Shown: positions 3,492-38,934, counted from the first letter of the stretch. The stretch: DNA of 64,000 nucleotides from Felis catus (GCF_018350175.1 NC_058368.1:91080001-91144000), one strand, 5' to 3'. The notes: generated by a model from the letters alone, not told the origin. Translations and numbers: made by a program.

Positions 3492-3699
3492 GTGGGTCAC
3501 AGGGGAATGGGAGCCTTGCAGTCAGAGCTGTGGGCGGACGGGCACGCAGGCTCGCACCGTGCGCTGCATACAGCTGCTGCACAACAACACCACCCGCTCC
3601 GTGCACACCAAACACTGCAACGACGCCCGGCCCGAGGGCCGCCGGGCCTGCAACCGTGAGCTCTGCCCTGGCCGGTGGCGGGCCGGACCCTGGTCCCAG
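3492..3699 (+). CDS. ADAMTS2: ADAMTS2 coding exon, TSP1 repeat (likely exon 19)
   Basis: cccacag|GTGGGTC ... TCCCAG|gtaagc. Encodes [69 protein letters not shown]. 208 bp, phase 2 to 0. Confidence 0.96.
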
Positions 3700-4936: not shown

Positions 4937-5323
<387 letters not shown>

Positions 5324-5908: not shown

Positions 5909-5998
5909 GAAACATCTCTGATCCTTCCAAGAAGAGCTACGTGGTTCAGTGGCTGTCCCGACCGGACCCCGACTCTCCAGTCCAGAAGACCTCGTCAA
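5909..5998 (+). CDS. ADAMTS2: ADAMTS2 penultimate coding exon (likely exon 21)
   Basis: ccctctag|GAAAC ... TCGTCAA|gtaacc. Encodes (R)[29 protein letters not shown]. 90 bp, phase 1 to 1. Confidence 0.93.
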
Positions 5999-6816
5999 GT
6001 AACCGGCCCGTTTATAACTCTGCCTCTGCCCTCCAGTGCATGCCCTGCGCCCTGTGGAGCTTGCCGTGGGCTCCCCTCCTCTCTTTCTATGGAAAACTTC
6101 CCTGACTCTTCCTGAGCGCTCTCTCGGTTGAATCTGATTTCTCCGGGCCTCTGTGCTCGGCAGTCTCCTTTGGAGCCGCCCAGCCGGCTGCCTGGCCGGG
6201 AGGGCCCGCCTCTGCAGAGGCGTGGCCCCAGGGCAACTGGCCTCTTGTGGGGGGGCCGGGACCTGGTTGGTGATGGCGTGTAAAGGGGCAAAGATCTGTC
6301 TTGGTGCTGGAGGGGCCAGAGGCCAGAGTGCAAATGTGACCATTTGGTGACCACGTCTCGGGGCCACATCCCTGCAAGCTGGAGCTGCAGGTCAGAAGTC
6401 AAGGGGCAAGCCCACCGGTCCCCTTTCAAACACCGCCCACCAGCGAGGCGAGGCCAGAGGGGCTCTGGGGCGTGTTTTGTGCCGCTGAGCTGGGTGGCCC
6501 GGCCCTGAGATTCCGGGGGCGCGTCGGGAGCTTCCCGGCCGCCTCTGCTGTTGCTGCTGCTGCTGACCCTGTGCTGAGTGTGTCCTCCTGACTTGTGTGA
6601 CTGTGGCCTGCTTCCTGTGGCCTTTGCGTCCAACTTACACAGCCCTTGGCCACCCCTCTCCCTGAGCCCCATCCCCTCGCGGGTTCGGGTTAAACAGAGA
6701 CGGCGGGGAACGTGTCCCTCCAGTGGAACACTGGGACACACCGCCCCTTCCATTCTCTGTCCATTAGCTCCAATGGCCTTTTCTCATCGTGCACACATGA
6801 CCCCATCCATAGAGGT

Positions 6817-6860
6817 GAGAGATTGAGAGAGAGGTTGAGAGAGAGAGAGAGAGAGAGAGA
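6817..6860. repeat. (GA)n microsatellite
   Basis: Direct observation. Confidence 0.95.
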
Positions 6861-7722
6861 AACTGATGTGGATGCGGCCACCTACCAGTGTGAACAACTA
6901 CAGAATTACCTCAATTTTTATTGCTTTTTTGCTTAGATAAAACTATGTAGAAAATGCCTTAAAGTTGAAAGGTAACAGATTTGGCTGCTAAGTCCAGCTT
7001 CAGAGCGGGGACGGGATCCAGGTATAGGAAGCAGGCAGTGGCAGGCCCAGGGGGAGGCAGTCCCGCTCATCCACTTTTCGCCCAGAGTAAGGTTTCCCAA
7101 CCCAGAGGGCCTGACTCCCCTCTGGCCCTGGCGTCCTGTGCAGGGGACCCAGGTGTGCTGGCTCCAGCCAACACTGCAGAGAAGAGACCCACTCTGAGGC
7201 CATGCGGCCAGTCGGCACTGACTGTTTGCTGAGCCCCCCACCCCTATCCCGGGCGCTCCCCCAGTGCTGCCTTACCCAGAAGGCAGCGCGCCCGGCCCCT
7301 GGTGTGACCCGTGTAGCGCCCCCGCCCCAGCCCCCCTGCCACCTGCTAATGGCATCCCTGGGACCAGCACCCAGCCTCCTCCCCGGCTCCAACTACTGTT
7401 ATGTACATACTCGGTGTGTAACGCGTACTAATTCTCACGACTGTTAACTTCCAACTTTGACTAGGCCACGCGAGTGACTCTGACTCTGGGAAGGTGCAAT
7501 ACGGTCCTGGGCATTGTGCTCTCTGTCTATATGCACTTTGGTTTATCAGGGATATTTTATTAGTGTTTTGTATGTATCCAATGACGTAATTAACATAGGC
7601 TCCATTGTCGTCGCTTTTCTGGTTTTTTTATGAGACAAAGTTTAGTGTGTGCCAAAGTGACTGTGGAAATGACCTTTTCTCCTCACTAATGATGGAAAGA
7701 CTTTCCTGTCATGCATCCCACA

Positions 7723-7737
7723 AATAAACTCAATAAA
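7723..7737 (+). terminator. Twin AATAAA signals in the last ADAMTS2 intron (candidate intronic polyA site)
   Basis: AATAAA at 7723-7728 and 7732-7737, not within a SINE tail. Upstream TGTA elements; downstream GU-rich gggtgcttgggtttgg. Confidence 0.5.
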
Positions 7738-9576
7738 AGTTCAGTGAAACTGGGTGCTTGGGTTTGGCACGCTGCTGGCTCCTTCTCTTCGCCTCCATAG
7801 CTGACGGCGCTGGCAGACCTGCGGGGACCCTTCTGTCGCATTAGTGACCGGGTTTCCGCTTCCAGTGACTCCCGCCACCCCCCATCCCCCTGCCCAATGT
7901 GGATATGTAGGGTCCCTCCCCCACTGAGGTGCATACCCCTGTCCCCAGGCATTTTTCAAAATGTGACAGCAGCCCATGAAGACACTCCACTATGATTTTG
8001 ACTTTCGACTCATTCGTGCTGAATGAGCCCCTTTGAGGGAACGTCTGGGTTCTCTCCCCACAGATGGAAGTTTTTCACCATTGGGAAAGGGTCCCGGGGT
8101 GGGTTTCCCCTACCTCTGGGATCAGTGGAGTGGGAATGTGGGGTCAGTAGCCCAGATAGTGCTGGCCCAGGTCACCGCCCCCCAAGCCACCATTGGGCCA
8201 CTGCCACCTGTTCAGGGAGGGAGAGGTGCCCATCTGGCCCAGGTCGGGGGCATGGGGCGGGAGAAGGGCCAGGCAGCGGCAGCTCCGGGCACCTGGCCTG
8301 TGCTTAGCCATGCCCGCCCGCGTCTCCACAGGCCTCGCGTCAGAAGCTGCAGGGCCTGGTGCATTGGCTCACCTCTGACAAGGGCCAGACAGCAGGTCGG
8401 GGTCCAACAGGGACCTCCTATCAGCGGGCTTCTCTCTCTTCCCTCTCCTATGGAGGGGATCCCGTGCCACAGAGGAGGGAGATCCTGAGAAAGGATGACA
8501 TGGGGCCACCCGGTGTCATGGAAACAGTCTTGGAGTCACAGGGCCAGGTCCCGGGGGGCCAGCCTGCCAGTGCAGGTCGCGGTAGCGTGGCTGAATTCAC
8601 TCTGCCCAGAGCTCTGGTCACTGAAAGGAATCCCAGCTCCAGAGACACAAGACCTTGAGAGACACAACTTCGTCTGAGAGAGCCGCGTCCACGCAGTGTC
8701 CCTTCCCAGATGGTTCAGGAGGAATCCCCGTGGAAGGGGCTTCCAGGCCAGAGCTGCAGGCAGGCCACCGACAGCCCAGGGGACCACACCAGGGACAGTC
8801 GTGGTGCGTGAGGGCCCTGCCGGGGGGCCCACGCTCCTGTACCCTGTGGCACGACCTTTTTGGATGGGGAAATGCTGCATGAGGCTCAATTGAGAAAAAG
8901 AGAGAACCAGGTTTTCTCCATCCTAGCCTTTCCCGAAGCGTGGGACACAGGGAGGTTTAATTCAGAGGGTGCGTAAATGTGGCCTGAATCCCCCCGCCTC
9001 TGAACAGCCCCTTCCTAGTTCCCTTCACCCTTCACGACGCTGGCACCCCCCTCACACTTGCTCGCTCTCTGCAGCCCGGAGCTGTGCAGGCGAGAGGGTC
9101 TCCCTTGCCATTTGAGGAATTAAACTTCGGGTGAAAAGTTTGTTTTCCTAATTAGGGTCACCTTTATTGATCACTGCTACTTGCCCGTGAATGGTGGTAG
9201 TGTAAGGTTTTCTTCTAAAATAAATGTTAAGTTAAAGAAAAAAAAGACATTAATTTAAAGGAGGAAACACAGGCAGGATTTGGCTGGAGCCAAGATTGGT
9301 GGGAATGGCCCACAAATGGCTTCAGTGTATGACAAGGGGTTTACTCTCAATGGTTTGTTGTTGGCTGGAAGGCAATAGGTCTTGCCAATTCATTGCTACC
9401 GGAAATGGCTGAAGACCAGGTACTAGGACACCGGAATCTTATTCTTGATGTAGTACAGATGCTTTGCCGGTCAGTGCCTCGGGCCACATCATGGGCCCTT
9501 TGGTGGTGTACTTCCCCTCATCTCAGAGGGCTGTCTGCTCAGTGATAAAACTGTTGGCATCCTTTTAAGAATGATT

Positions 9577-9998
9577 GGCACCTGGGTGGCTCAGTCGGTT
9601 GGGTGTCCGACTCTTGATTTCAGCTCAGGTCATGATCCCAGGGTTTGTGAGTTTGAGTCCCACATTGGGCTCTCTGCTGACAGCGTGGAGCCTGCTTAGG
9701 ATTCTCTCTCTCCTCTCTGCCGCTCCCCCGCTTGCACTGTCTCTCTCAAAAATAAATAAATCTTAAAACAGAATGGTTCAGCAGGGGCAGGGGGCACCTG
9801 GGTGGCTCAGTCAGTTAAGTATCCGACTCTTGATTTCAGCTCAGGTCATGATCTCACAGTTCATGGGTTCGAACCCTGTGTCGGGCTGTGCACTGACAGC
9901 ATGAAGCCCACTTGGGATTCTCTCTCTCCCTCTTTCTCTGACCCTTCCCCACTTGTGTGTGTACTGTCTCTCTCAAAATGAATAAACTTCAAAAAAAA
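9577..9998 (+). mobile_element. Two tandem CAN-SINEs (~9577-9768, ~9791-9998)
   Basis: Two SINEC heads and tails. gaatgatt is repeated on both sides of the pair. Confidence 0.9.
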
Positions 9999-10320
9999 TG
10001 GGAATGATTATTTTGAAAAAGTTTCTAGGGTAATATTAGCATAGCCAAACTCCTGGCCTGTGGCTTTCTTAACTCTTTATTCATTCATTATCTTCATTTT
10101 TAAAAACTTAAAGTAATGCAGCCACCGTGCAGAGGAAAATAGACATAGAAGTCCAACCTGTAGGGCAGGTGAAGGGAGGCGCCCTGGAGACGGGGACCCT
10201 TGGCCCCCCAGCTGTCACCTGCCTGTTAGTTCCAAATCGTCCATTCACTCAGGGACATCTGTCCAGTGCTTTCTGTGTGAGGCTCTGACTCGGGCACTGG
10301 GAGGCTGCTGAGCTCCCGAC

Positions 10321-10431
10321 CACAGGTCGGCAAACTTTTCTCTGAAAGGCCAGACAGTAATGGTTAAACCTTATGTACAAAACCAGGTGGAGGCACCCAC
10401 TTGGACCGTGGGAGTAGCTGGCTGACCCCTG
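10321..10431 (-). mobile_element. MER58-like hAT MITE, internally deleted
   Basis: Termini ggtcggcaaacttttctctgaaaggccagacagtaa ... gctgacccctg (imperfect TIRs). Confidence 0.6.
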
Positions 10432-11329
10432 CCCTCTACAGAGGGGATGCTGGTTTCCCAGGATCTCAGCCTGGGGGGAGAGAAGTGAGGGGGAGGCTTA
10501 AGTCATTTATGTGAAGAAGGCGGCACAGGTGACAGGGGAGGGTGCTGCTGTGGGGCCAGGGTGGCCCCACTCCCGGCAGCATCACCAGGCCTAGCTCCAT
10601 CTGTGTTTGTCGAGGCCCCTGCCCCCACCATGTCCAGCCGGGTTGGACAGCCAAAGCCAGGGGTGGGAGGACACCACCCCCTGCCTTGTCAGAAGTCTCG
10701 CTGTGTCTCTGGAGGGCTGTGATCAGTGGTTTTTACACCTGGTGGCTGCCAGAAAGGGGAGAAGGGTCAGGGGGTGGGGAAGGGGCCAGGTGGGGCTCCA
10801 AGCACTCCCGAGCTTCAAACAGGACCACTCCAATTTCCTCTGTCTCATACACTGGGCATCTGTAAGATTTTATCTGAGCATCCCAGGATCTTCTCACGTG
10901 ATTTCTGGAATCGGCCCTTAGCACGAGGCCACCTGCCTTTCCCCCTCCACATCTTGAGCCTGCTTCTGGCTCTCTAGGTTGGGAAGGCCAAAGCTCTTCC
11001 TGAACAGCTGATCTGTGTTTACCTCTTTCACCTTGTGCATCACGCAGTCTGGCACATTTCCTCCTGATTTGGGCCACTCAGAAGGTTAGAGTCAAAGTTG
11101 GGTCCACCTCTGGTGGCATGTGCCTCTCTGTGTTCTTCATGCCTATCATGTTACTATTTTAAAATCCATAATTTCCCTGTTTTGGACTTCCTCAGTTATT
11201 CACGTGTGTCTTTTTTCAGATTGATATATTTCTGCATTGTCCGATTCACTGGTCTAGGCTCTGGGGCTAGAGAGGCATCTAAATATAGCTTGGGGCTCTG
11301 TCCTGTGGAACTTACTGGATAATGAAAAC

Positions 11330-11960
11330 AGGTGACAGACACCTTATCTGACAACTAAATGTGAACTTGCCAACTGGGATAGAGTGTTGGGAGGGAGAGA
11401 ACTTCCCAAGGGAGGGCAGGTGATTCTTGCCCGGAGATGTGTTTCAGCTGAGCCTAGAGGAGGAGAGGAGAGCAACTGAAGGAAGACAGAGGGCGTGGCC
11501 ACAGTATGTGCAAAGGCCCTGTGGCCAGGGGGAGCCCAGTATAATGTAGGGGGTCAAGGCCTGAGTGAAGCTGGAGAGGTGAAGGAGACAGGTCCTCACC
11601 CTAAAATCAATGAGGGGCAATGCAGGGACTTCAATCAGGACAGTGACATGGTCACACCTTCAGTTGAAAAACAGCATTCTGACAAGAGCAGGATAGTGAA
11701 CAAAAAGGAGAAAGAATTGAGATAGGTCAGCAGAAAGGAGGCTCTTACCACAGTGCAGACAAGAGGCAAAGCAGCTTGACCCATGGAGGTGGGAGAGAGG
11801 GGAAATGGACACACCTGAGAGTGTCTAGGAGGAAATACCAACAGACTTGGGGGTGAACAGACGGGGTGTGCCTGGGGTTCGGCTTATGCCCTGGAAAGGC
11901 CATTCTCTGAGACAGGTGGTGCCAGCCAAGGCCCTGGGGTTGCACTGGGCATGTGGAGTC
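11330..11960. mobile_element. Ancient L2 LINE fragment
   Basis: agctgagcctagagg...acagtatgtgcaaaggccctgtggc motifs typical of decayed L2. Confidence 0.45.
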
Positions 11961-12681
11961 TCAGGCACATTTGGGACCACAGGGGTTAGGGGGCTGTCCT
12001 ATAGGCAGTCGTATCCGAGAGTCTGAAGCTCCAGGAATTTGGGGTTGGTGTCCGGTCAGGTGGGTCACCAGCCTGGAAGGGGAAATTATAGGCTGGAACA
12101 ATGGGCAGGCAGTGGGCACCATCAGAACCTCCTGAATGGGAGAGGACCTGCTTATCTGTTACTGCGAGAAGTTTCTGTGGGCTAGCAGAGTCACAGACGT
12201 GGGTGTAGACAGTGCCCCGTGTTGGTGCACAGAGTAACTGCATCAGATGTGGTTTCTACCCATGGCTGCCTCTTCCTTCCCTTTGTCCTTCCCTCTTTCC
12301 TCCCCACTTCCTTTCTAGGAGACAAGGTCAAGGAGGGAGAGGGAGAGAAAGAGGAATGCGGCAGAGGTTGTGAGGGAAAGGTTTGAGATGCTCACTGCGG
12401 GGGTGGGGGGCGGGGGGCTCAGAGGGTGGCTTAACAGAGAGACACAAGTAGGCAGGTGGGCCCAGTGAGGCCAGGGATCAGGAATTTACACCGATCTGCT
12501 ATTCCCTGTTATGTTGTCATAATGACTTATTCTTTCATGTTGAATGAATTCCTGCAAATCCTCTCAAATTCTGTGGAGTGAGGTGGTGAGGGAGAGGGAG
12601 GAGGGGAAGGAATTTGGGAAGAAGACGGGGGAGAGAGTAAGAGCAAGAACAAGGGTAGGAGGGGTTGTGTGGGTAGAACAA

Positions 12682-13029
12682 CAGCTGACCTTGAACCACA
12701 CGGGTTTGAAATTCACCAGTCCACTTACACATGGGATTTTTTTGATAAATACAGCACAGCACCCTAAATGTGTGTTTCTCTGCCTTACGATTTCCTTAAT
12801 AACATTTTCTCTTCTCTGGCTTACTTTATTATGAGGATACAGTATACACTACATATATCATACAAAATCTGTGTCCACCCTGCTGTTTGTGTGGTCGGGA
12901 AGGCTCCTGGGCAAAGTAGACGGCTAGTAGTTAAGTTTGGGGCCAGTCAGATGTTGTATGTGGATTTCCAACTGTGTGGGTGGGGGTGGGGTGGCACCCC
13001 TAACCCCCACGTAGTTCAAGGGTCAACTG
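12682..13029 (+). mobile_element. Tigger2a-like (TcMar-Tigger) MITE
   Basis: Terminal inverted repeats cagctgacc-ttgaaccacacggg ... cccacgtagttcaagggtcaactg. Confidence 0.8.
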
Positions 13030-13825
13030 TGATACAGCTGCAGACAGTTGGAGCCCAGCCAGGAAGAAAACAGCTGTGCAGGGAGAGACACTGCCCTCTA
13101 TAGAGGCTAGACCGCGGTGGCCGGCTTCTTGGGCGGGAAGGAAAGGAAAGGAAAGGACACACCGGGCAGGAGGACGAGCCTGTGTGAAAGGACCGGGTTT
13201 TGGAGCAGTCTGTTGGGGGATGGCCAGGAGCCCAGGGTGGCGGGGCTGTGCGATGGAGGCAGCAGTGAAGAGACATGAGGCTGGTGGGTAAGTTGAGGCA
13301 AGGGGAAGAAAGCCCAGACAGGTTTGGGTGAGGATGGGAACATATTGTGCAGGAAATGTGGTGAGGCTGCCGCCAAGTCTCTTGGATTTGTTCTATCGGG
13401 TTTTAGAAATCGGTCCCCTCAGTTTCAATTTTGTCATAGTCAACGGCCTAGAGATGACTGCAGGGCCGACCTCCGCCACAGGATCTCATTGGGGTTACCA
13501 GTGGGATGTCAGAGATTAACCTGATGCAGTCCCATTCTTTCACAGGAATCACTCCCCAGGCCTCATTTCTGTCTGGGACTCTAAGAGATACAGAAAACCC
13601 CAGGGGCCTGCCTGGAGGCAGGGAGCACCGCTCACAGCTTGTGTGGCCGCGCTCTGCTGCAGCGCTGCTGACATCAGGACCACACGCACTTTCCGCGTGA
13701 GCTCGCTTGCCTCTGTGCTGTCTCTGGGCTCTTTCAAACGCCTCCTCCTGCTTCCCCTGGGGGGAACGAGGCCCCCCCACCTTATCCTGTCCTTTGGTTA
13801 TGTGCTTCCCGCTTTTCTCTTTCAG

Positions 13826-14283
13826 AGGCCCGCTGCCAAGGCGACAAGTCAATGTTCTGTAGGATGGAAGTCTTGTCGCGCTATTGCTCCATCCCAGGCT
13901 ACAACAGGCTGTGCTGCAGATCCTGTAACCTGCACGACAACCTCACCGATGTGGATGACAGGGCGGAGCTGCCACCTGGGAAGAACAACGACATTGAAGA
14001 CCTCGTGCCCACCCTCCCGGTGCCCACCCTCGTCATGGAGGTGCGGCCTCCGCCGGGCACACCCTTGCAGGTGCCCCTCAACACCTCCAGCGCCAACGGC
14101 ACTGAGGATCACCCAGACACCAACGCAGTTGACGTGCCCTACAAAATCAACGGCCTGGATGAGGAAGGCCAGCCACCCAACCTGATCCCTCGACGACCGA
14201 GCCCGTATGAAAAGACCAGAAACCAGAGAATCCAAGAGCTCATCGATGAGATGAGGAAGAAAGAGATGCTCGGGAAGTTCTAA
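13826..14283 (+). CDS. ADAMTS2: ADAMTS2 terminal coding exon (PLAC domain and C-terminal tail)
   Basis: ctctttcag|AGGCC acceptor. Encodes (K)[33 protein letters not shown]...[30 protein letters not shown], the characteristic ADAMTS2 C-terminus. TAA at 14281-14283. Confidence 0.97.
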
Positions 14284-17200
14284 TAAAATGGAAAGATAGC
14301 ATCAATAGCATTTTTTTTCTTGCTTATAGATTATATTCCATGGGATGGCAGATCGTGGAGAGGAAGTGAAAATGTCTGATTCCAACAGGTTTTAAGAAAA
14401 CAAAGAGGAGAATGACATAAACATCTATACATGTGGTTGTGAGCGCGGGGCAGCTAGGTTCACGCATGTGTTTGTGTCCCAGCTCTGGAATGTTCTAAGT
14501 CCTGTCCTGGGGTTGGGTGTGGAGCGGGGAGAGGAAACACGTGCCCCAAGTTTCTGAGCAGTGATTGGGAATCTTCCTGTCCTTGGTGGTGACAGCCCTT
14601 CTGGAGAACATTCTGGAGAAATGTTCTGCAGGAACATTTCCTACCAATCCCCAGACCGAGGCACAAGCCCCATGGGGAACTCTTATTAGGAGAAACAGTG
14701 ATTTGTTTACTAATTGACCAGTCACTGAGATGAGCACAATGAAGTGGAGGCCGTGAACTTGAAAGTTCGTGACGTCAAGGGCCGGGCAGGTGTCGAGGAT
14801 GAGTGTGGCAGCCCATGGGGAACTGTGACCAACCTGAGAGCTGCACCCCACTAGTGCTGCTTTTGGGTTCCAGCCACTGCTGCCTCTGTGACCGCAGGCT
14901 CCTGGGGCCAGATAGGGTGCTTTCAGTAGAAGTCTAGATTTGCATGCGAAATCCTCAATCCTAAAAGTTCAACCCAAAATATTTCCGGGGGGCGGGGGAC
15001 TTCTGGAAGGTCTTTTAGGGTCTAGAGCCACCAGGCTGCAGCCTCTGGTCTCCAGGCTCGGCCAGACGCAGTCTCTCGAAGTAACGACTTAAGGAAGGAA
15101 AGCCATCTGGCCCGACTGGCGCTCAGGCACTGTGTCTGACTCAGCCCACCCTGAGCTGCGAAGCTGTCTGCTTCTTCCCCAGAAGGTACGGAGAATCCTG
15201 TAACTAACTGGACTTGATCTGAACAGTGGGCTGCCTTTCCTACAGGAGGAGAAGACCGCAGGGTGCACTCTCCGGCTCTCCCAGGCCTCTTTCCTATCGG
15301 CTCACCCGGCCTGCGTGCTGCCTCTTGGCCAGACTGGCCTTGGCCCCGGGGCTCCCCAGGGGAGGCTCTCCCTCCCCAAGTGCGTTGGAAGAATGAGGAG
15401 GGCATGCGCTCTGCTGGATAGTCCAGCAACTTTCCCAGAGGGGAGAGAAGGGGAGTGGCTGTGCTCTGGGTTCTGAGATGGTGCTCTGCCTGCTCAGGTT
15501 TGCTCCTAAAGACGAAGGCCAGCTTCTATTGCCTGCAGGGATGGGGCGGGGGGGGGGGGGGGGGGAGGTGGCCTTGCTCTGTCTCGCCCTGCTCCATTCC
15601 TTGGCAGTTCCAGCAGTGAACTGTAAGATTTGGCCTCCCATGAGAAGCACGGGGTGGGGGGTGGGGAGAGCCTGCTTTATCTTGTGCTGCTCCTAAGCTT
15701 TGACAACTTCTCTTTTCAGCATAACGGTGCTTTGTGAGCAAGATGTGAATTGAGAGAAGCAGGAAGGGAGGGGGAAGGTGGACGGGAGGATGGCGACTAA
15801 TTTTTACCTCTCCCTGCATTGATATTTTGTGAACATGTGGCTTGCTTAAACTTCCCCAAATTATGAGACCCAGGGGGCACTTCAGCTGCTTAGCTGGGCC
15901 AAGCCTGACACATGATTCTGAAGCTTTTTATGTCTAGGAAGGTTCTAGAGCCTTTGTATTCTCACCAGTCATAGATTTTAGAGAGCTCTTTTCTGTTTCG
16001 TTCCCCATTTTATGGATGAGAACACTGAGGTTCAGGAGAATACCATGATGGCTACTTATACTGAGTCTGAGGTGCTAGGTATGTTTGATTCTGTGCACGC
16101 GTGCGGGTGTCTGTCTGTGTGTGATCTAGGGCCAAAGTGAGGGTGTAGGAACCAGTGAGAGCGATATTTGGGATGATGCCTATCTTCTGACTGGCAGTAA
16201 CTAGCCTCCCCAACCCCCGCCTGTGCCAGCCGCCTCCCTCCTCTCTGCCATCTTGTCCCACACATACTCCTGCATGTGCTGGTGTCTCAGAGGAGCTTGC
16301 TGGCTTCTAAGAAGCAAACTGGAGAAAACATTCTTGGAGATCTCTCACGGTATCACCTCTTTGACATATGTGGTGTAACGTACTTTTGCAATCCTGTCTC
16401 TCTATAATCAGGAAAGGGGTGTCTCAGTTTTCTCTCACTGGTTGACCCCTGGCAGCTGGTGCTATTACTCACAGGCTGAAGGACTGGGTAGCTCTTGCTT
16501 GGGTCTGTCCTGGGATACAGAGGAAATTCAGGGTGACTGACCCTCACCAGAGAGTATCACTCAGTTTACCCAGCCTGGGGGCCTCAGGATGGGAACAGTC
16601 CATTCCCAGATCCCAACAAAGCAGGGCTGCATGTCTCGGGGACTGGAAGCCTTTGGGGAGAGGCCCCAGGTGGGACACCCCCAGGGTACCTGTCTTCTTC
16701 TGGAAGGAGGGACATGCCCCCCTGGGAACTGTAGGCCGGCATGGCCACCACCCCATGTGATACTCAGTACCTGGGGTCATATACCCACAGGGCTCTCTAG
16801 AACTAGACAGTCCTCAGGGGTCTCTCTGTCTAAGGAACACAAGGTTTACCAGACTTCGAGAAACTCATCTCCACTGAGCTTGGGACCAGTCGGAGAGCCA
16901 GCTTAGCCACAGTCCCATGACCTTTCAGAGCCAGCATCCATGTTGGGGGGCTCCCGCAGCCTGCAGGCCAAGAAGATTTCCTAGCTGGCATTCTGGAACA
17001 GCACGCTGAGAACTCAGAGGTCCCCTCTGACTGCGGCTCCAGAAAACTACGTTTGTGGGGAGACAACCTGCTGGGGTTTGGGGACTTGGCTCTCTGATCT
17101 ACTCCTTTTGGAAAACCCATGGAATTTCCTGTATAAGCCTTTTGTTTGTATTTTAAGGTTGTTTGTTTGGAGTCTATACATGGTGCTCAGCAGCAGTCTC

Positions 17201-17385
17201 TATCAGGTGAAGCATGATGACTATGTAGCCAGGCAGCCGCCACACGAAAAATCATCATGGTGCTGAACTCAAATCACAGCATTTTATCTTATCCATCACA
17301 GCAATCAACGTATTTGTTTTCTGTATAGAAAAGTTTGGCTTCTTGATTTTATAACTTATTAAAGTTGAAATGTCTGTGTATTTTG
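14284..17385 (+). other. ADAMTS2: ADAMTS2 long 3'UTR (approximate end)
   Basis: Follows the stop codon and is nearly repeat-free. Ends in a U-rich block with ATTAAA at 17358 followed by GU-rich sequence. Confidence 0.65.
17358..17363 (+). terminator. Probable distal polyadenylation signal of ADAMTS2 (ATTAAA)
   Basis: ATTAAA with upstream TGTA/U-rich elements and downstream tgtctgtgtattttg. Confidence 0.6.
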
Positions 17386-17722
17386 CACACCATGCCTGCG
17401 TTTGTTTGTTACCTTGACTACACTACCCATGTCTTCAGCCTACACTTGGGTGGGGGGAGGGATGTGCTGCCCTCACAAGGGGGGGATGGGGCCACCAGGA
17501 GGCCCCGAACCTACTGGCTAGGCCAACTGCTCAAGTCGGGACCCTGTGCCTGGCAAGGGGCCCCCAGAAGGACAGGTCTCTGCTCCCAGATCCCCAGGGA
17601 GTTGGCTGTCCAGGAGACACCACTTAGCGGGTTGCTTCCAAGCAAACCTTTAGTTCCAGGAGAAGATGAAAAATCTCCTGACTCCTCCTCCTCCCTGATT
17701 CCGACCCCTTCTCTCCTATAAT

Positions 17723-30427: not shown

Positions 30428-31915
30428 TGCCACAAAAACAAATACTCAGATCAATGGAACAGAATAGAGAACCCAGAAATAGACCCACAAAATGTATGGC
30501 CAACTAATCTTTGACAAACCAGGAAAGAATATCCAATTGAATAAAGACGGTCTCTTCAGCAAGTGGTGCTGGGAAAACTGGACAGCGACATACAGAGAAA
30601 TGAACCTGGACCACTTTCTTACACCAGACACAAAACTAAACTCAAAAGGGATGAAAGGCCTAAATGTAAAACAGGAAGCCATCAAAATCCTCAAGGAGAA
30701 AGCACGCCAAAACTTCTTTGATCTTGCCTGCAGCAACTTCTTATTCAACACGTCTCCAGAGGCAAGGGAAACCAAAGCAAAAATGAACTATTGGGACCTC
30801 ATCAAAATAAAAAGCTTCTGCACAGCAAAGGAAACAATCAGCAAAACTAAAAGGCAACTGACAGAATGGGAGAAGATGTTTGCAAATGACATAACAGATA
30901 AAGGGTTAGTATCCAAGATCTATAAAGAACTTATCAAATTCAATACCCAAAAAACAAATAATCCAGTGAAGAAATGGGCAAAAGACATGAATAGACACTT
31001 CTCCAAAGAAGACATCCAGATGGCCAACCGACATGAGAAAATGCTTAACATCACTCATCATCAGGGAAATACAAATCAAAACCACAATGAGATGCCACCT
31101 CACACCTGTCAGAATGGCTAACATTAACAACTCAGGCAACAACAGATGTTGGCGAGGATGCAGAGAAAGAGGATATCTTTGGCACTGCTGGTGGGAATGC
31201 AAACTGGTGTAGCCACTCTGGAAAACAGTATGGAGGTTCTCAAAAAATTAAAAATAGAACTACCCTCTGACCCAGCAATTGCACTACTAGGTATTTATTC
31301 CAGGGATACAGGTATGCTGTTTCAAAGGGGCACATGTACCCCAATGTTTATAGCAGCACTACCAAAAATAGCCAAAGTATGGAAAGAGCCCAAATGTCCA
31401 TCAATGGATGAATGGATAAAGAAGATGTGGTATATATAGACAATGGAGTATTACTCGGCAATCAAAAAGAATGAAATCTTGCCTTTTGCAACTATGTGGA
31501 TGGAACTGGAGAGTATTATACTAAGCAAAATTAGTCAGAGAACAACAAACATCATATGACTTCACTCATATATATCTTCACTTTATATATATCACATATA
31601 CTTTCACTTTAAGATAAAAAACAGATAAACATAAGGGAAGGGAAGCAAAAATAATGTGAAAACAGGGAAGGGGACAAAACATAAGAGACTCTTAAATATG
31701 GAGAACATACTCTGGTTTCTCTTCAGATTGCATAAATCTTTCACCTTTTTTAAATATGGAGAACAAACAGAGGGTTACTGGAGGGGTTGTGAGAGGGGGG
31801 ATGGGCTAAATGGGTAAGGGGCATTAAGGAATCTACACCTGAAATATTGTTGCACTATATGCTAACTTGGATGTAAATTAAAAAATAAATAAATAAAAAT
31901 AAATAAAATTTAAAA
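30428..31915 (+). mobile_element. 5'-truncated carnivore L1 (~1.5 kb of ORF2 C-terminus plus 3'UTR), inserted in an older antisense L1 (~29990-32620)
   Basis: ORFs 30492-31121 and 31146-31439 are frameshifted L1 ORF2 ([37 protein letters not shown]). A-rich tail. aaatt(t)attttct flanks both ends. Confidence 0.93.
31707..31749 (+). pseudogene. RNU5: U5 snRNA 5'-fragment retrocopy (nt ~1-43), tailless
   Basis: ATACTCTGGTTTCTCTTCAGATtGCATAAATCTTTCaCCTTTT matches the recalled U5 5' end with two CpG-decay mismatches. Flanked by direct repeat TTAAATATGGAGAAC (31692-31706 and 31750-31764). Confidence 0.9.
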
Positions 31916-37417: not shown

Positions 37418-38832
37418 TTAAACTTCACAGGAGTCATCATCTCTGAGAAATCTCTGATACTGAGTAAGGGAGGAGCTATAGATAAAAGGATTCCCATATT
37501 CCTTCCATTTATAGAGTTTTTCCTTAGTGTGAACTTTTTTGTGTCTACAAAGGTTTGATCTATAACTGTAGGCTTTCCCACACTCCATGCACTTGTAGAG
37601 TTTCTCGCCAGTATGGATCCTCTCGTGCTCTGTTAGGAATGAATACTGGCTGAAGGCTTTCCCACACTGATTACACTGGTAGGGTTTCTCTCCAGTGTGA
37701 ATTCTCTGATGCCTGTAAAGGTTGGATTTGCAACCAAAGGCTTTCCCGCATTCTCCACATGGGTAAAGCTTTTCCCCGGTGTGAATTTTACGATGTTCAC
37801 TGAAGGATGAATACTGGTTGAAGGCTTTCCCACATTCATTGCACTGGTAGGGTTTCTGACCAGTATGAATTCGCTGGTGTTCAATAAGGGTGGAGATGCG
37901 TGTGAAGGTTCTCCCACATTCCAAGCATTTACACAGCTGTTCTCCAGTATGAAGCTTCTGATGTTCAGCCAGGGATGCAAACTGGCTGTAACCTTTCCCA
38001 CATTCACTGCATTTATAGGGTTTCTCCCCTGTGTGGATTCTTTGGTGTCTGTGAAGTTTTGCTCTACAATTGAAGGCCTTCTCACATTCAGCACATTTAT
38101 AGAGTTTCTCTCCAGTATGAATCCTCTGATGTACAGTGAGGGTTGAACACTGGCTAAAGGCTTTACCACATTCCTTACACTGGTAGGGTTTCTCACCAGT
38201 GTGCACCCTCAGGTGTTTGATTAGGGTCGAGCTGCTGCTAAACGCCTTCTCACATTCATTACATTTGTAAGGTTTCTCTCCAGTATGAATTCTCTGATGG
38301 GCAAGAAGGGAGGATCTGTGGCTAAAGGGTTTCCCACACTCACTACATCTGTAGGGTTTCTCACCAGTGTGAATTCTCTGGTGTTCAATCAGATGGAGAC
38401 TATGGTTGAAGCTTTTCCCACATTCATTACAAAGATGAGGTTTTTCTCCTGGGTAAATCTGGATGCATCTCATTAAATCAAAATTCTGTTTAAAATCTCT
38501 CCCAAAAGTGTAATATATATTGGGTATCCTTTCTATAGGAACACTCTGTTGTGTGACAAGAATTGTATTTATAAGTAAGCCTTTCCCCAATTCAAGACGT
38601 GTCTGCTTTACATCTCCACTCACAGTTTTTTCGTGTGAGGTCATGATTTGCTGAAGAGGTTTCTTCCGTTGCTCCTGTTCTGTTCCACTCTCCAATTCCA
38701 AAGTCTGTCCAAAATCGATGTCCCAGTGACCAAACTTAATGGACTTTTTCTTTATTATTCCCTGAGATGTTTCTTCTATAGAAATGTCCTGTCTGGGAGG
38801 TGAGGCTTCCATTTCAGGCCAAGTCTTGAAAC
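37418..38832 (-). CDS. ZNF354C: ZNF354C last exon: linker plus 11 C2H2 zinc fingers and a degenerate C-terminal finger
   Basis: Minus-strand ctccag|GTTTCAAG acceptor gives (G)[15 protein letters not shown]..., joining ORF 37418-38812. TGEKPY linkers. Ends ...[31 protein letters not shown], matching ZNF354C as recalled. Confidence 0.93.
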
Positions 38833-38934
38833 CTGGAGTGGATCAGAAGCATTAACGGCACCTCTACAGGAAGAGTGAAACATGCAACCGTGGAACAGTA
38901 AAATTGGCAATAGTACATATAAAACAGGTCTGAG

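Follow-up and report, generated by a model that had tools for sequence, protein, structure and literature searches.

The window analyzed here, a stretch of 64,000 nucleotides from Felis catus taken at its full length, contains the 3′ end of ADAMTS2. Its TSP1 repeats, penultimate-exon segment and PLAC-bearing last exon all match named proteins upon translation, including the felid records P0089 and P0093, which were matched to the penultimate and last exons. The window was compared with L001, an 18-kb bird-like locus retrieved via protein P0141, with exon matches of 69–96% to a bird ADAMTS2 record. The canonical 3′ end of the gene is made up of the following features.

4958–5087, plus strand: upstream coding exon with most of the last TSP1 repeat, retained in every route (from sequence).
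5909–5998, plus strand: penultimate exon, 90 nt, from translation; shared 5′ part of a likely composite terminal exon.
13826–14283, plus strand: coding part of the canonical last exon, with a PLAC-like motif and the C-terminal tail (from translation and L001 alignment).
17358–17363, plus strand: likely canonical polyadenylation signal ATTAAA, within a conserved block at 17322–17387.

In the available part of the supplement to PMC8559711, the penultimate exon of human ADAMTS2 is likewise 90 nt long and is followed by a last intron of 7336 nt. An earlier note on this DNA took the canonical last exon to encode the PLAC domain, in agreement with the PLAC-like motif in 13826–14283, a Pfam match (E 0.0012) that falls under the curated cut-off. 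Of the 3.1-kb canonical 3′UTR, just the initial 47 nt and a terminal block of 66 nt that contains the ATTAAA align to L001. This end block (17322–17387; 17466–17531 in L001) is the sole conserved piece of the distal canonical 3′UTR and likely marks the canonical mRNA end. The same 3′UTR holds four matches to the miR-29 seed. An AATAAA at 14282–14287 overlaps the canonical stop codon (TAATAAA), and L001 carries an AATAAA just ahead of its own stop; the hexamer in the window may be a proximal polyadenylation signal or may occur by chance.

Within the 7.8-kb last intron, the earlier note had proposed an alternative terminal exon (6937–7760), entered by splicing from 5998 to an acceptor at 6937 and ended by a U-rich block with polyadenylation signals. 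The landmarks on which that proposal was built are in place and do not look like products of chance: a donor follows 5998, an AG ends at 6936, a GT lies at 6972, and the true acceptor precedes 13826; an in-phase TAG occupies 6948–6950, and the stop of the proposed 35-nt cassette lies 21 nt ahead of 6971/6972. Twin AATAAA hexamers were found at 7723 and 7732, and four TGTA motifs, of which several had been claimed, at 7402, 7417, 7569 and 7573 within 7390–7740. GC content falls to 0.33–0.50 in 100-nt intervals starting at 7400–7700, as compared to 0.63–0.75 in those starting at 7050–7300 and 7750–7850. Upon alignment of the intron to L001, three blocks matched in the same order and the remaining 6 kb did not: the donor region up to 6176 (69% identity), 6880–7000 (79%) and 7385–7767 (70%), with nothing alignable in 7768–13791. 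The features defined by this comparison in the two distal blocks are as follows.

6886–6936, plus strand: 51 nearly invariant nt that close with a U-rich tract and AG (relative to L001, a single substitution and a single indel).
6937–6971, plus strand: candidate exon of the earlier note, with TAG at 6948–6950 and GT at 6972 (35 nt; L001 counterpart 36 nt).
7385–7767, plus strand: conserved U-rich 3′-end block with a 53-nt exact core at 7524–7576 (70% identity, E 5e-52, both against L001 alone).
7732–7737, plus strand: conserved polyadenylation signal AATAAA, with a GU-rich tract, also conserved, downstream at ∼7752–7767 (L001 comparison).

The longest exact runs shared with L001 are 53 nt (7524–7576) and 34 nt (6897–6930), whereas those in the coding exons compared do not exceed 17 nt; these DNA comparisons took in little of the 90-nt penultimate exon, and conservation at the DNA level refers throughout to this one outgroup locus. 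More sequence is aligned in the putative alternative 3′UTR (∼570 nt) than in the canonical 3′UTR (∼110 nt). The AATAAA at 7732 is preceded by UGUA and U-rich elements and followed by GU-rich elements, an arrangement kept in L001, and an exact shared run of 15 nt starts at 7730. The earlier note had treated the two hexamers as a pair; the one at 7732 is conserved in L001 and the one at 7723 is not. By itself, the pattern of an AATAAA plus a GU-rich tract is not enriched (9 observed versus 6.0 expected). A mammalian query against metagenome contigs found no orthologous DNA, and genome and viral contigs yielded no further orthologous locus; a candidate obtained with a bird-like query (L002) matched at 34%, which is chance level, and was set aside. 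Judged from sequence comparison, the intronic ADAMTS2 ending shared by cat-like and bird-like genomes appears to be a real and deeply conserved alternative 3′ end. The U-rich block thus looks like the mRNA 3′ end that the earlier note took it for, and the conserved block would imply, as that note held, an ADAMTS2 that lacks PLAC, keeps all TSP1 repeats and has a separate 3′UTR.

It seems to us very improbable that the blocks are something other than an ADAMTS2 3′ end, be it the remnant of a transposon, an enhancer or the terminus of an antisense RNA. An antisense transcript would fit the minus-strand AATAAA hexamers at plus-strand positions 6917 and 7556, both within conserved runs, with a GU-containing tract downstream of the former on the minus strand. 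Both hexamers read TTTATT on the plus strand, however, and may therefore perhaps be plain U-rich elements. Moreover, the blocks are collinear with L001 and single-copy in the 64-kb window (no second copy of 6880–7000 or 7385–7767, as compared to 44 matches for a SINE control, the first copy in 9570–10000), conservation stops just past the plus-strand AATAAA and GU tract, Rfam has no match in 5999–7770, and spliced protein records that bear the read-through tail described below exist. Elsewhere in the window, Rfam returned six weak matches near 12.2–12.4 kb, all far under the gathering score. Two tandem SINE-like copies occupy 9570–10000 of the last intron and carry AATAAA hexamers of their own at 9751, 9755 and 9981.

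The third conserved block, missed by the earlier note, is an in-frame read-through at 5999–6105, directly 3′ of the penultimate exon.

5996–6004, plus strand: donor CAA / GTAACC (CAA / GTAAAA in L001; from sequence).
5998–6105, plus strand: read-through frame of 35 codons and TGA (stop at 6103–6105), encoding an alternative C-terminus (from translation, L001 and protein records).
6106–7760, plus strand: putative alternative 3′UTR of ∼1.65 kb with a predicted cleavage site; no signal until 7723.

In both the window and L001 the frame stays open past the donor at 5998 for 35 codons and ends in TGA, at 6103–6105 in the window. The donor lacks a G at −1 and at +5 in both loci, the sole such case among five donors compared, and we take it to be weak in both by the donor consensus. 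Plus-strand AATAAA or ATTAAA hexamers are absent between 6106 and 7723, and the distance from stop to signal is 1627 nt in the window and 1853 nt in L001.

Searching with the exon and tail together retrieved 32 proteins, 11 of which are 91–100% identical along the full 64-residue query, and a second tail search added seven shorter proteins. Twenty distinct variants of mammal type were compared; in 17 of them the tail has exactly 35 residues, 25 of which do not vary within these 17. The other three variants are P0012 and P0013, gene models that splice on after the tail, and P0073, a frameshifted contig ORF. A marsupial-based search yielded P0141 and P0142, which join bird- or reptile-type exon sequence to a related tail; the 35-residue length recurs in L001 and P0141. 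Five sauropsid-type genomic ORFs (P0142, P0147, P0143, P0144, and P0145) retain the tail sequence while lacking its stop, with tail lengths of 40, 40, 88, 131, and 137 residues, and the lineages of these records would make correspondingly longer C-termini (40–137 residues). Among the retrieved proteins, read-through records of rodent or marsupial type were not recognized. HMMER over 1.84 billion proteins gave 11 matches, 10 of ADAMTS2 type and one chance repeat, with no ADAMTS3/14, amphibian or fish tail recognized among them, and the ESM Atlas searched with the tails gave no usable match.

Among 150 fetched proteins, 133 span the penultimate exon; 67 of these continue canonically and 66 carry the tail, although 58 of the latter are unspliced genomic ORFs, many of them near-duplicates. 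Counting spliced or annotated records, canonical ends number 67 and tail ends eight. Six upstream-spliced records terminate in the tail. Two are from apes (Pongo P0070 and Pan P0074), both titled “isoform 4, partial” of ADAMTS2 and presumably projected from human transcript models. Three more come from Saguinus (P0003), Prionailurus (P0089, 1094 aa) and Phyllostomus (P0115, 1088 aa), and the sixth, P0075, is an unnamed ORF on a contig of 1923 nt, as compared to the ∼1940 nt expected for the read-through route. Apart from this single contig ORF the six are annotations, and some annotated records may represent gene predictions instead of transcripts. All above-cut-off Pfam families of the canonical P0093 are also found in P0089, from which the sub-threshold PLAC match is absent. 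In contrast, an NKTM or other short end, as expected for splicing into 6937, occurs in none of the 150 fetched proteins (133 spanning the penultimate exon), a sample that included 15 of 631 main-cluster members among the matches listed. A search of sequencing runs with 6937–7760 listed 20 runs containing the stretch, 14 of them RNA by presumption alone and none identified as RNA, and was given no weight as evidence.

Since six spliced records have the 35-residue tail and none of the 150 fetched proteins the NKTM end, 6937–7760 is most likely, on sequence grounds, the far half of the alternative 3′UTR of a composite terminal exon and not an exon reached chiefly by splicing. A terminal exon of composite type, spanning 5909 to ∼7755, is also the simplest reading, and 6937–7760 would accordingly be 3′UTR. 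We therefore consider it highly probable that the penultimate exon runs through its apparently weak donor and 35 further codons to the stop at 6103–6105, with polyadenylation just after the AATAAA at 7732. Under this mechanism the donor at 5998 would be left unspliced and 5909 to ∼7755 would stay one exon, translation through the donor would add the 35 codons and end at 6103–6105, and the tail-bearing mRNA would end at the AATAAA at 7732. Cleavage after 7732 would compete with splicing to 13826, as in FLT1. As no junction would lie 3′ of the tail stop, the mRNA is predicted to escape junction-dependent decay. The canonical last exon (13826–14283) is likely dropped in this form, and the predicted protein of ∼1094 residues would include the protease and all TSP1 repeats and exclude PLAC and the C-terminal domain. 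The earlier note was thus likely right about the 3′ end and its consequence for the protein and wrong about the main junction.

The tail was compared between the window and L001 for signs of selection on the protein. Over its 105 nt there is no net indel, the TGA falls at the same place, and 20 of 35 residues are identical. pN/pS is 0.42 in the tail frame and 0.86 and 1.86 in the other two frames, as compared to 0.10–0.22 in true exons (controls being three exons, among them the alignable 4958–5087 at 0.22, and a 12-codon piece, with exon 3492–3699 left out). When the 32 tail changes (19 transitions) were placed at random 20,000 times, the observed identity was reached with P ∼0.04 and the observed BLOSUM score or better with P ∼0.003. 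The changes fall 10/7/15 over the three codon positions (p 0.078). The sequence comparison thus suggests a moderate signal of protein-level selection in the tail.

A possible though less likely explanation is that the intronic 3′ end is real and the tail is a by-product of it, with the sequence beyond the donor conserved at the RNA level to set the balance between splicing and cleavage, and with removal of the C-terminal domain or a lower output of full-length enzyme as the sole purpose. Such a reading would explain why pS over the first 15 tail codons is low (0.38, as compared to 0.69–0.95 in exons), why alignment with L001 extends ∼70 nt beyond the tail stop, and why the five sauropsid-type records lack that stop; the codon-position test, short of significance, is likewise compatible with it. 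On the other hand, the tail frame is favored over the other two and its changes are conservative (p ∼0.003), gaps relative to L001 are absent before the stop and common directly after it, and no conserved fold was detected in the post-donor stretch (z 0.39 and 0.04). Because the five sauropsid-type records keep the tail and lose its stop, part of the conservation may be at the RNA level, and coding and RNA-level constraint probably overlap in the read-through stretch.

The conserved acceptor consensus at 6937, together with the in-phase TAG and GTAA kept in L001, points to a possible second route, a splice from 5998 to 6937. This route would give a four-residue end, by way of either a 35-nt stop cassette or a skipped terminal exon that stops at 7732. 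Such a route is plausible, if somewhat less than an even prospect, and it may coexist with the read-through form and use the same polyadenylation site. When the 602 AGs of the intron were scored crudely for pyrimidines, the one before 6937 came out on top (30, as compared to 29 for the true acceptor); a score of at least 30 is reached by five of 4732 plus-strand AGs in the window, and the L001 counterpart of the 6937 AG is joint top of 288. The 51 nt preceding the AG are near-invariant, and identity falls to 4/11 nt just past it. L001 has an in-phase TAG at an equal distance from the AG, with no indel between, and a GTAA at the donor position. UGC/YGCY motifs, which are marks of regulated exons, are conserved beside the AG. 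The four encoded residues are not conserved, however (N-K-T-M versus K-E-E-F), so that the acceptor and stop of the earlier proposal are kept in L001 and its peptide is not. The candidate exon is 35 nt in the window and 36 nt in L001, where the donor (AAT / GTAAAT) is weak, and no fetched protein of the 150 ends in this way, within the coverage of 15 of 631 main-cluster members among the matches listed. In addition, U-rich 3′UTR elements and a let-7 seed match could account for the conserved block without splicing. The block at 6886–6936 may thus be a 3′UTR element, a splice acceptor, or both.

The block at 6886–6936 holds matches to the let-7 seed and to CPE-like and YGCY motifs. The putative 3′UTR also has seed matches at L001-aligned places for let-7 (6907), miR-132 (7439), miR-25/92 (7494) and miR-17 (7533). 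These miRNA-seed and protein-binding motifs were picked after the sequence had been viewed and therefore carry no statistical weight. Two further candidates in this region were rejected: a hairpin over 6880–7000 scored z −1.37 in the window and +2.09 in L001, and an in-frame 21-nt microexon from a second AG (6951–6971) is 22 nt long in L001. A (GA)n microsatellite at 6825–6860 lies just 5′ of the conserved 6880–7000, and a short (GT)n tract occupies a similar position in L001.

The preferred read-through form has a probable human counterpart in gene databases. According to the available text of PMC11541570, ENST00000518335.3 is a human ADAMTS2 form made by intronic polyadenylation; it retains all Pfam domains, and its abundance is greater in normal tissue than in tumor. 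Under the name ADAMTS2-203, this transcript is reported, in the part of PMC12996523 at hand, to be more abundant in Alzheimer’s than in asymptomatic brain. The tail form resembles it in being near full length, and P0089 has the stated domain content; ENST00000518335 is probably the same isoform. As far as their available text goes, the two reports (PMC11541570, PMC12996523) differ from the present analysis in giving abundance and not the C-terminus, conservation or function. The available text of a 2025 review on ADAMTS2 structure lists one alternative form, an inactive one, and no last-intron form (PMC12362006). That form arises from intron 10, has 566 residues and shows no detectable activity (PMC12362006, same text). 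Retention of mouse Adamts2 intron 19, by its numbering a different intron, is reported in the accessible part of PMC13597084. ADAMTS2 is not named in the available portions of the supplements to three intronic-polyadenylation papers (PMC5928244, PMC10960005, and PMC13187750), and searches of the open-licence literature turned up no publication that deals with the tail or how it is conserved, or with a GPI-anchored ADAMTS2. The tail form most likely belongs to a known kind, the composite terminal exon, and is already in gene databases, though unstudied as far as searched.

This arrangement is reminiscent of sFLT1, in which read-through of a donor gives a short new C-terminus. According to the available text of PMC2926593, intronic poly(A) signals and conserved cis-elements in FLT1 intron 13 compete with splicing to give sFLT1, and both the competition and the conserved cis-elements are features likened to the ADAMTS2 intron. 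The outcomes differ: FLT1 loses its membrane anchor and becomes a soluble decoy, whereas in the ADAMTS2 tail form a secreted protease would exchange an inhibitory domain for a hydrophobic end. ADAMTS2 activity rises 3–4-fold when part of the C-terminal domain is removed autocatalytically, and the fourth TSP1 repeat is required for full activity (PMC12362006, available sections). The trimmed enzyme and the intron-10 form share a shorter C-terminus with the tail form, but the former is shortened post-translationally and the tail form is encoded in the last intron. As trimming raises activity, the tail form would likely lack this brake from synthesis; by this analogy it would likely be an enzyme made without its inhibitory brake and under separate 3′UTR control. 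Thus, in a shorter enzyme, the inhibitory end domain of ADAMTS2 is likely exchanged for a conserved, hydrophobic tail of 35 residues.

A separate function is likely for the tail, the most plausible being retention of the enzyme at a membrane; this step of the explanation is the weakest. GPI-anchored proteases include MT4- and MT6-MMP, and the small residues of an omega site lie about 20–30 residues from the end of the protein. In outline, a GPI signal consists of an omega site that precedes a hydrophobic end (PMC10316631, available text). The tail has small residues (N-S-A) 25–28 from its end and, beyond them, a C-terminal stretch that is uncharged and moderately hydrophobic, which would fit such a signal. 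N-S-A occupies tail positions 7–9 in the window and L001 and is replaced among the 17 variants by N-P-A in two and N-S-V in four, and neighboring small residues could serve as the omega site. In contrast to typical GPI signals, the tail has marginal hydropathy (best 13-residue mean 1.15 in the window and 1.87 in L001), a lysine near its end, proline or valine by the site in 6 of 17 variants, and conservation far above what is usual, and in five sauropsid-type records the stop is lost and the end extended. The supplements of two GPI proteomics papers (PMC4260145 and PMC4838930), covering cell lines that may or may not express the isoform, contain no ADAMTS entries. An AlphaFold model of the Saguinus protein P0003 with alignment A2 gave a mean pLDDT of 42 and was uninformative because the alignment contained translated intron. 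It is conceivable but unlikely that the locus holds an amniote-old intronic polyadenylation switch in which a GPI signal replaces the inhibitory domain to give a pre-activated, membrane-anchored ADAMTS2, with the conserved 6937 acceptor as a second route, yielding a soluble form that likewise lacks the brake.

ADAMTS2 trims procollagen, a function tied to dermatosparaxis Ehlers-Danlos syndrome, and has been linked to TGF-beta signaling and reelin cleavage in the available text of PMC12362006 and PMC12996523. The last-intron form, if true, would be a genetically encoded route to shedding a domain that damps activity and could account for the transcript-level shifts reported in tumors and Alzheimer’s brain; variants in this “intronic” stretch would then become coding. 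A GPI anchor, if true, would be new for the ADAMTS family, known as secreted, as far as our searches reach. Beyond ADAMTS2, an open frame of 474 codons on the minus strand of the window (37418–38842) includes a C2H2 zinc-finger array and represents a neighboring gene that faces the ADAMTS2 3′ end, and a 212-codon frame at 30483–31121 resembles a LINE-1 ORF2 fragment.
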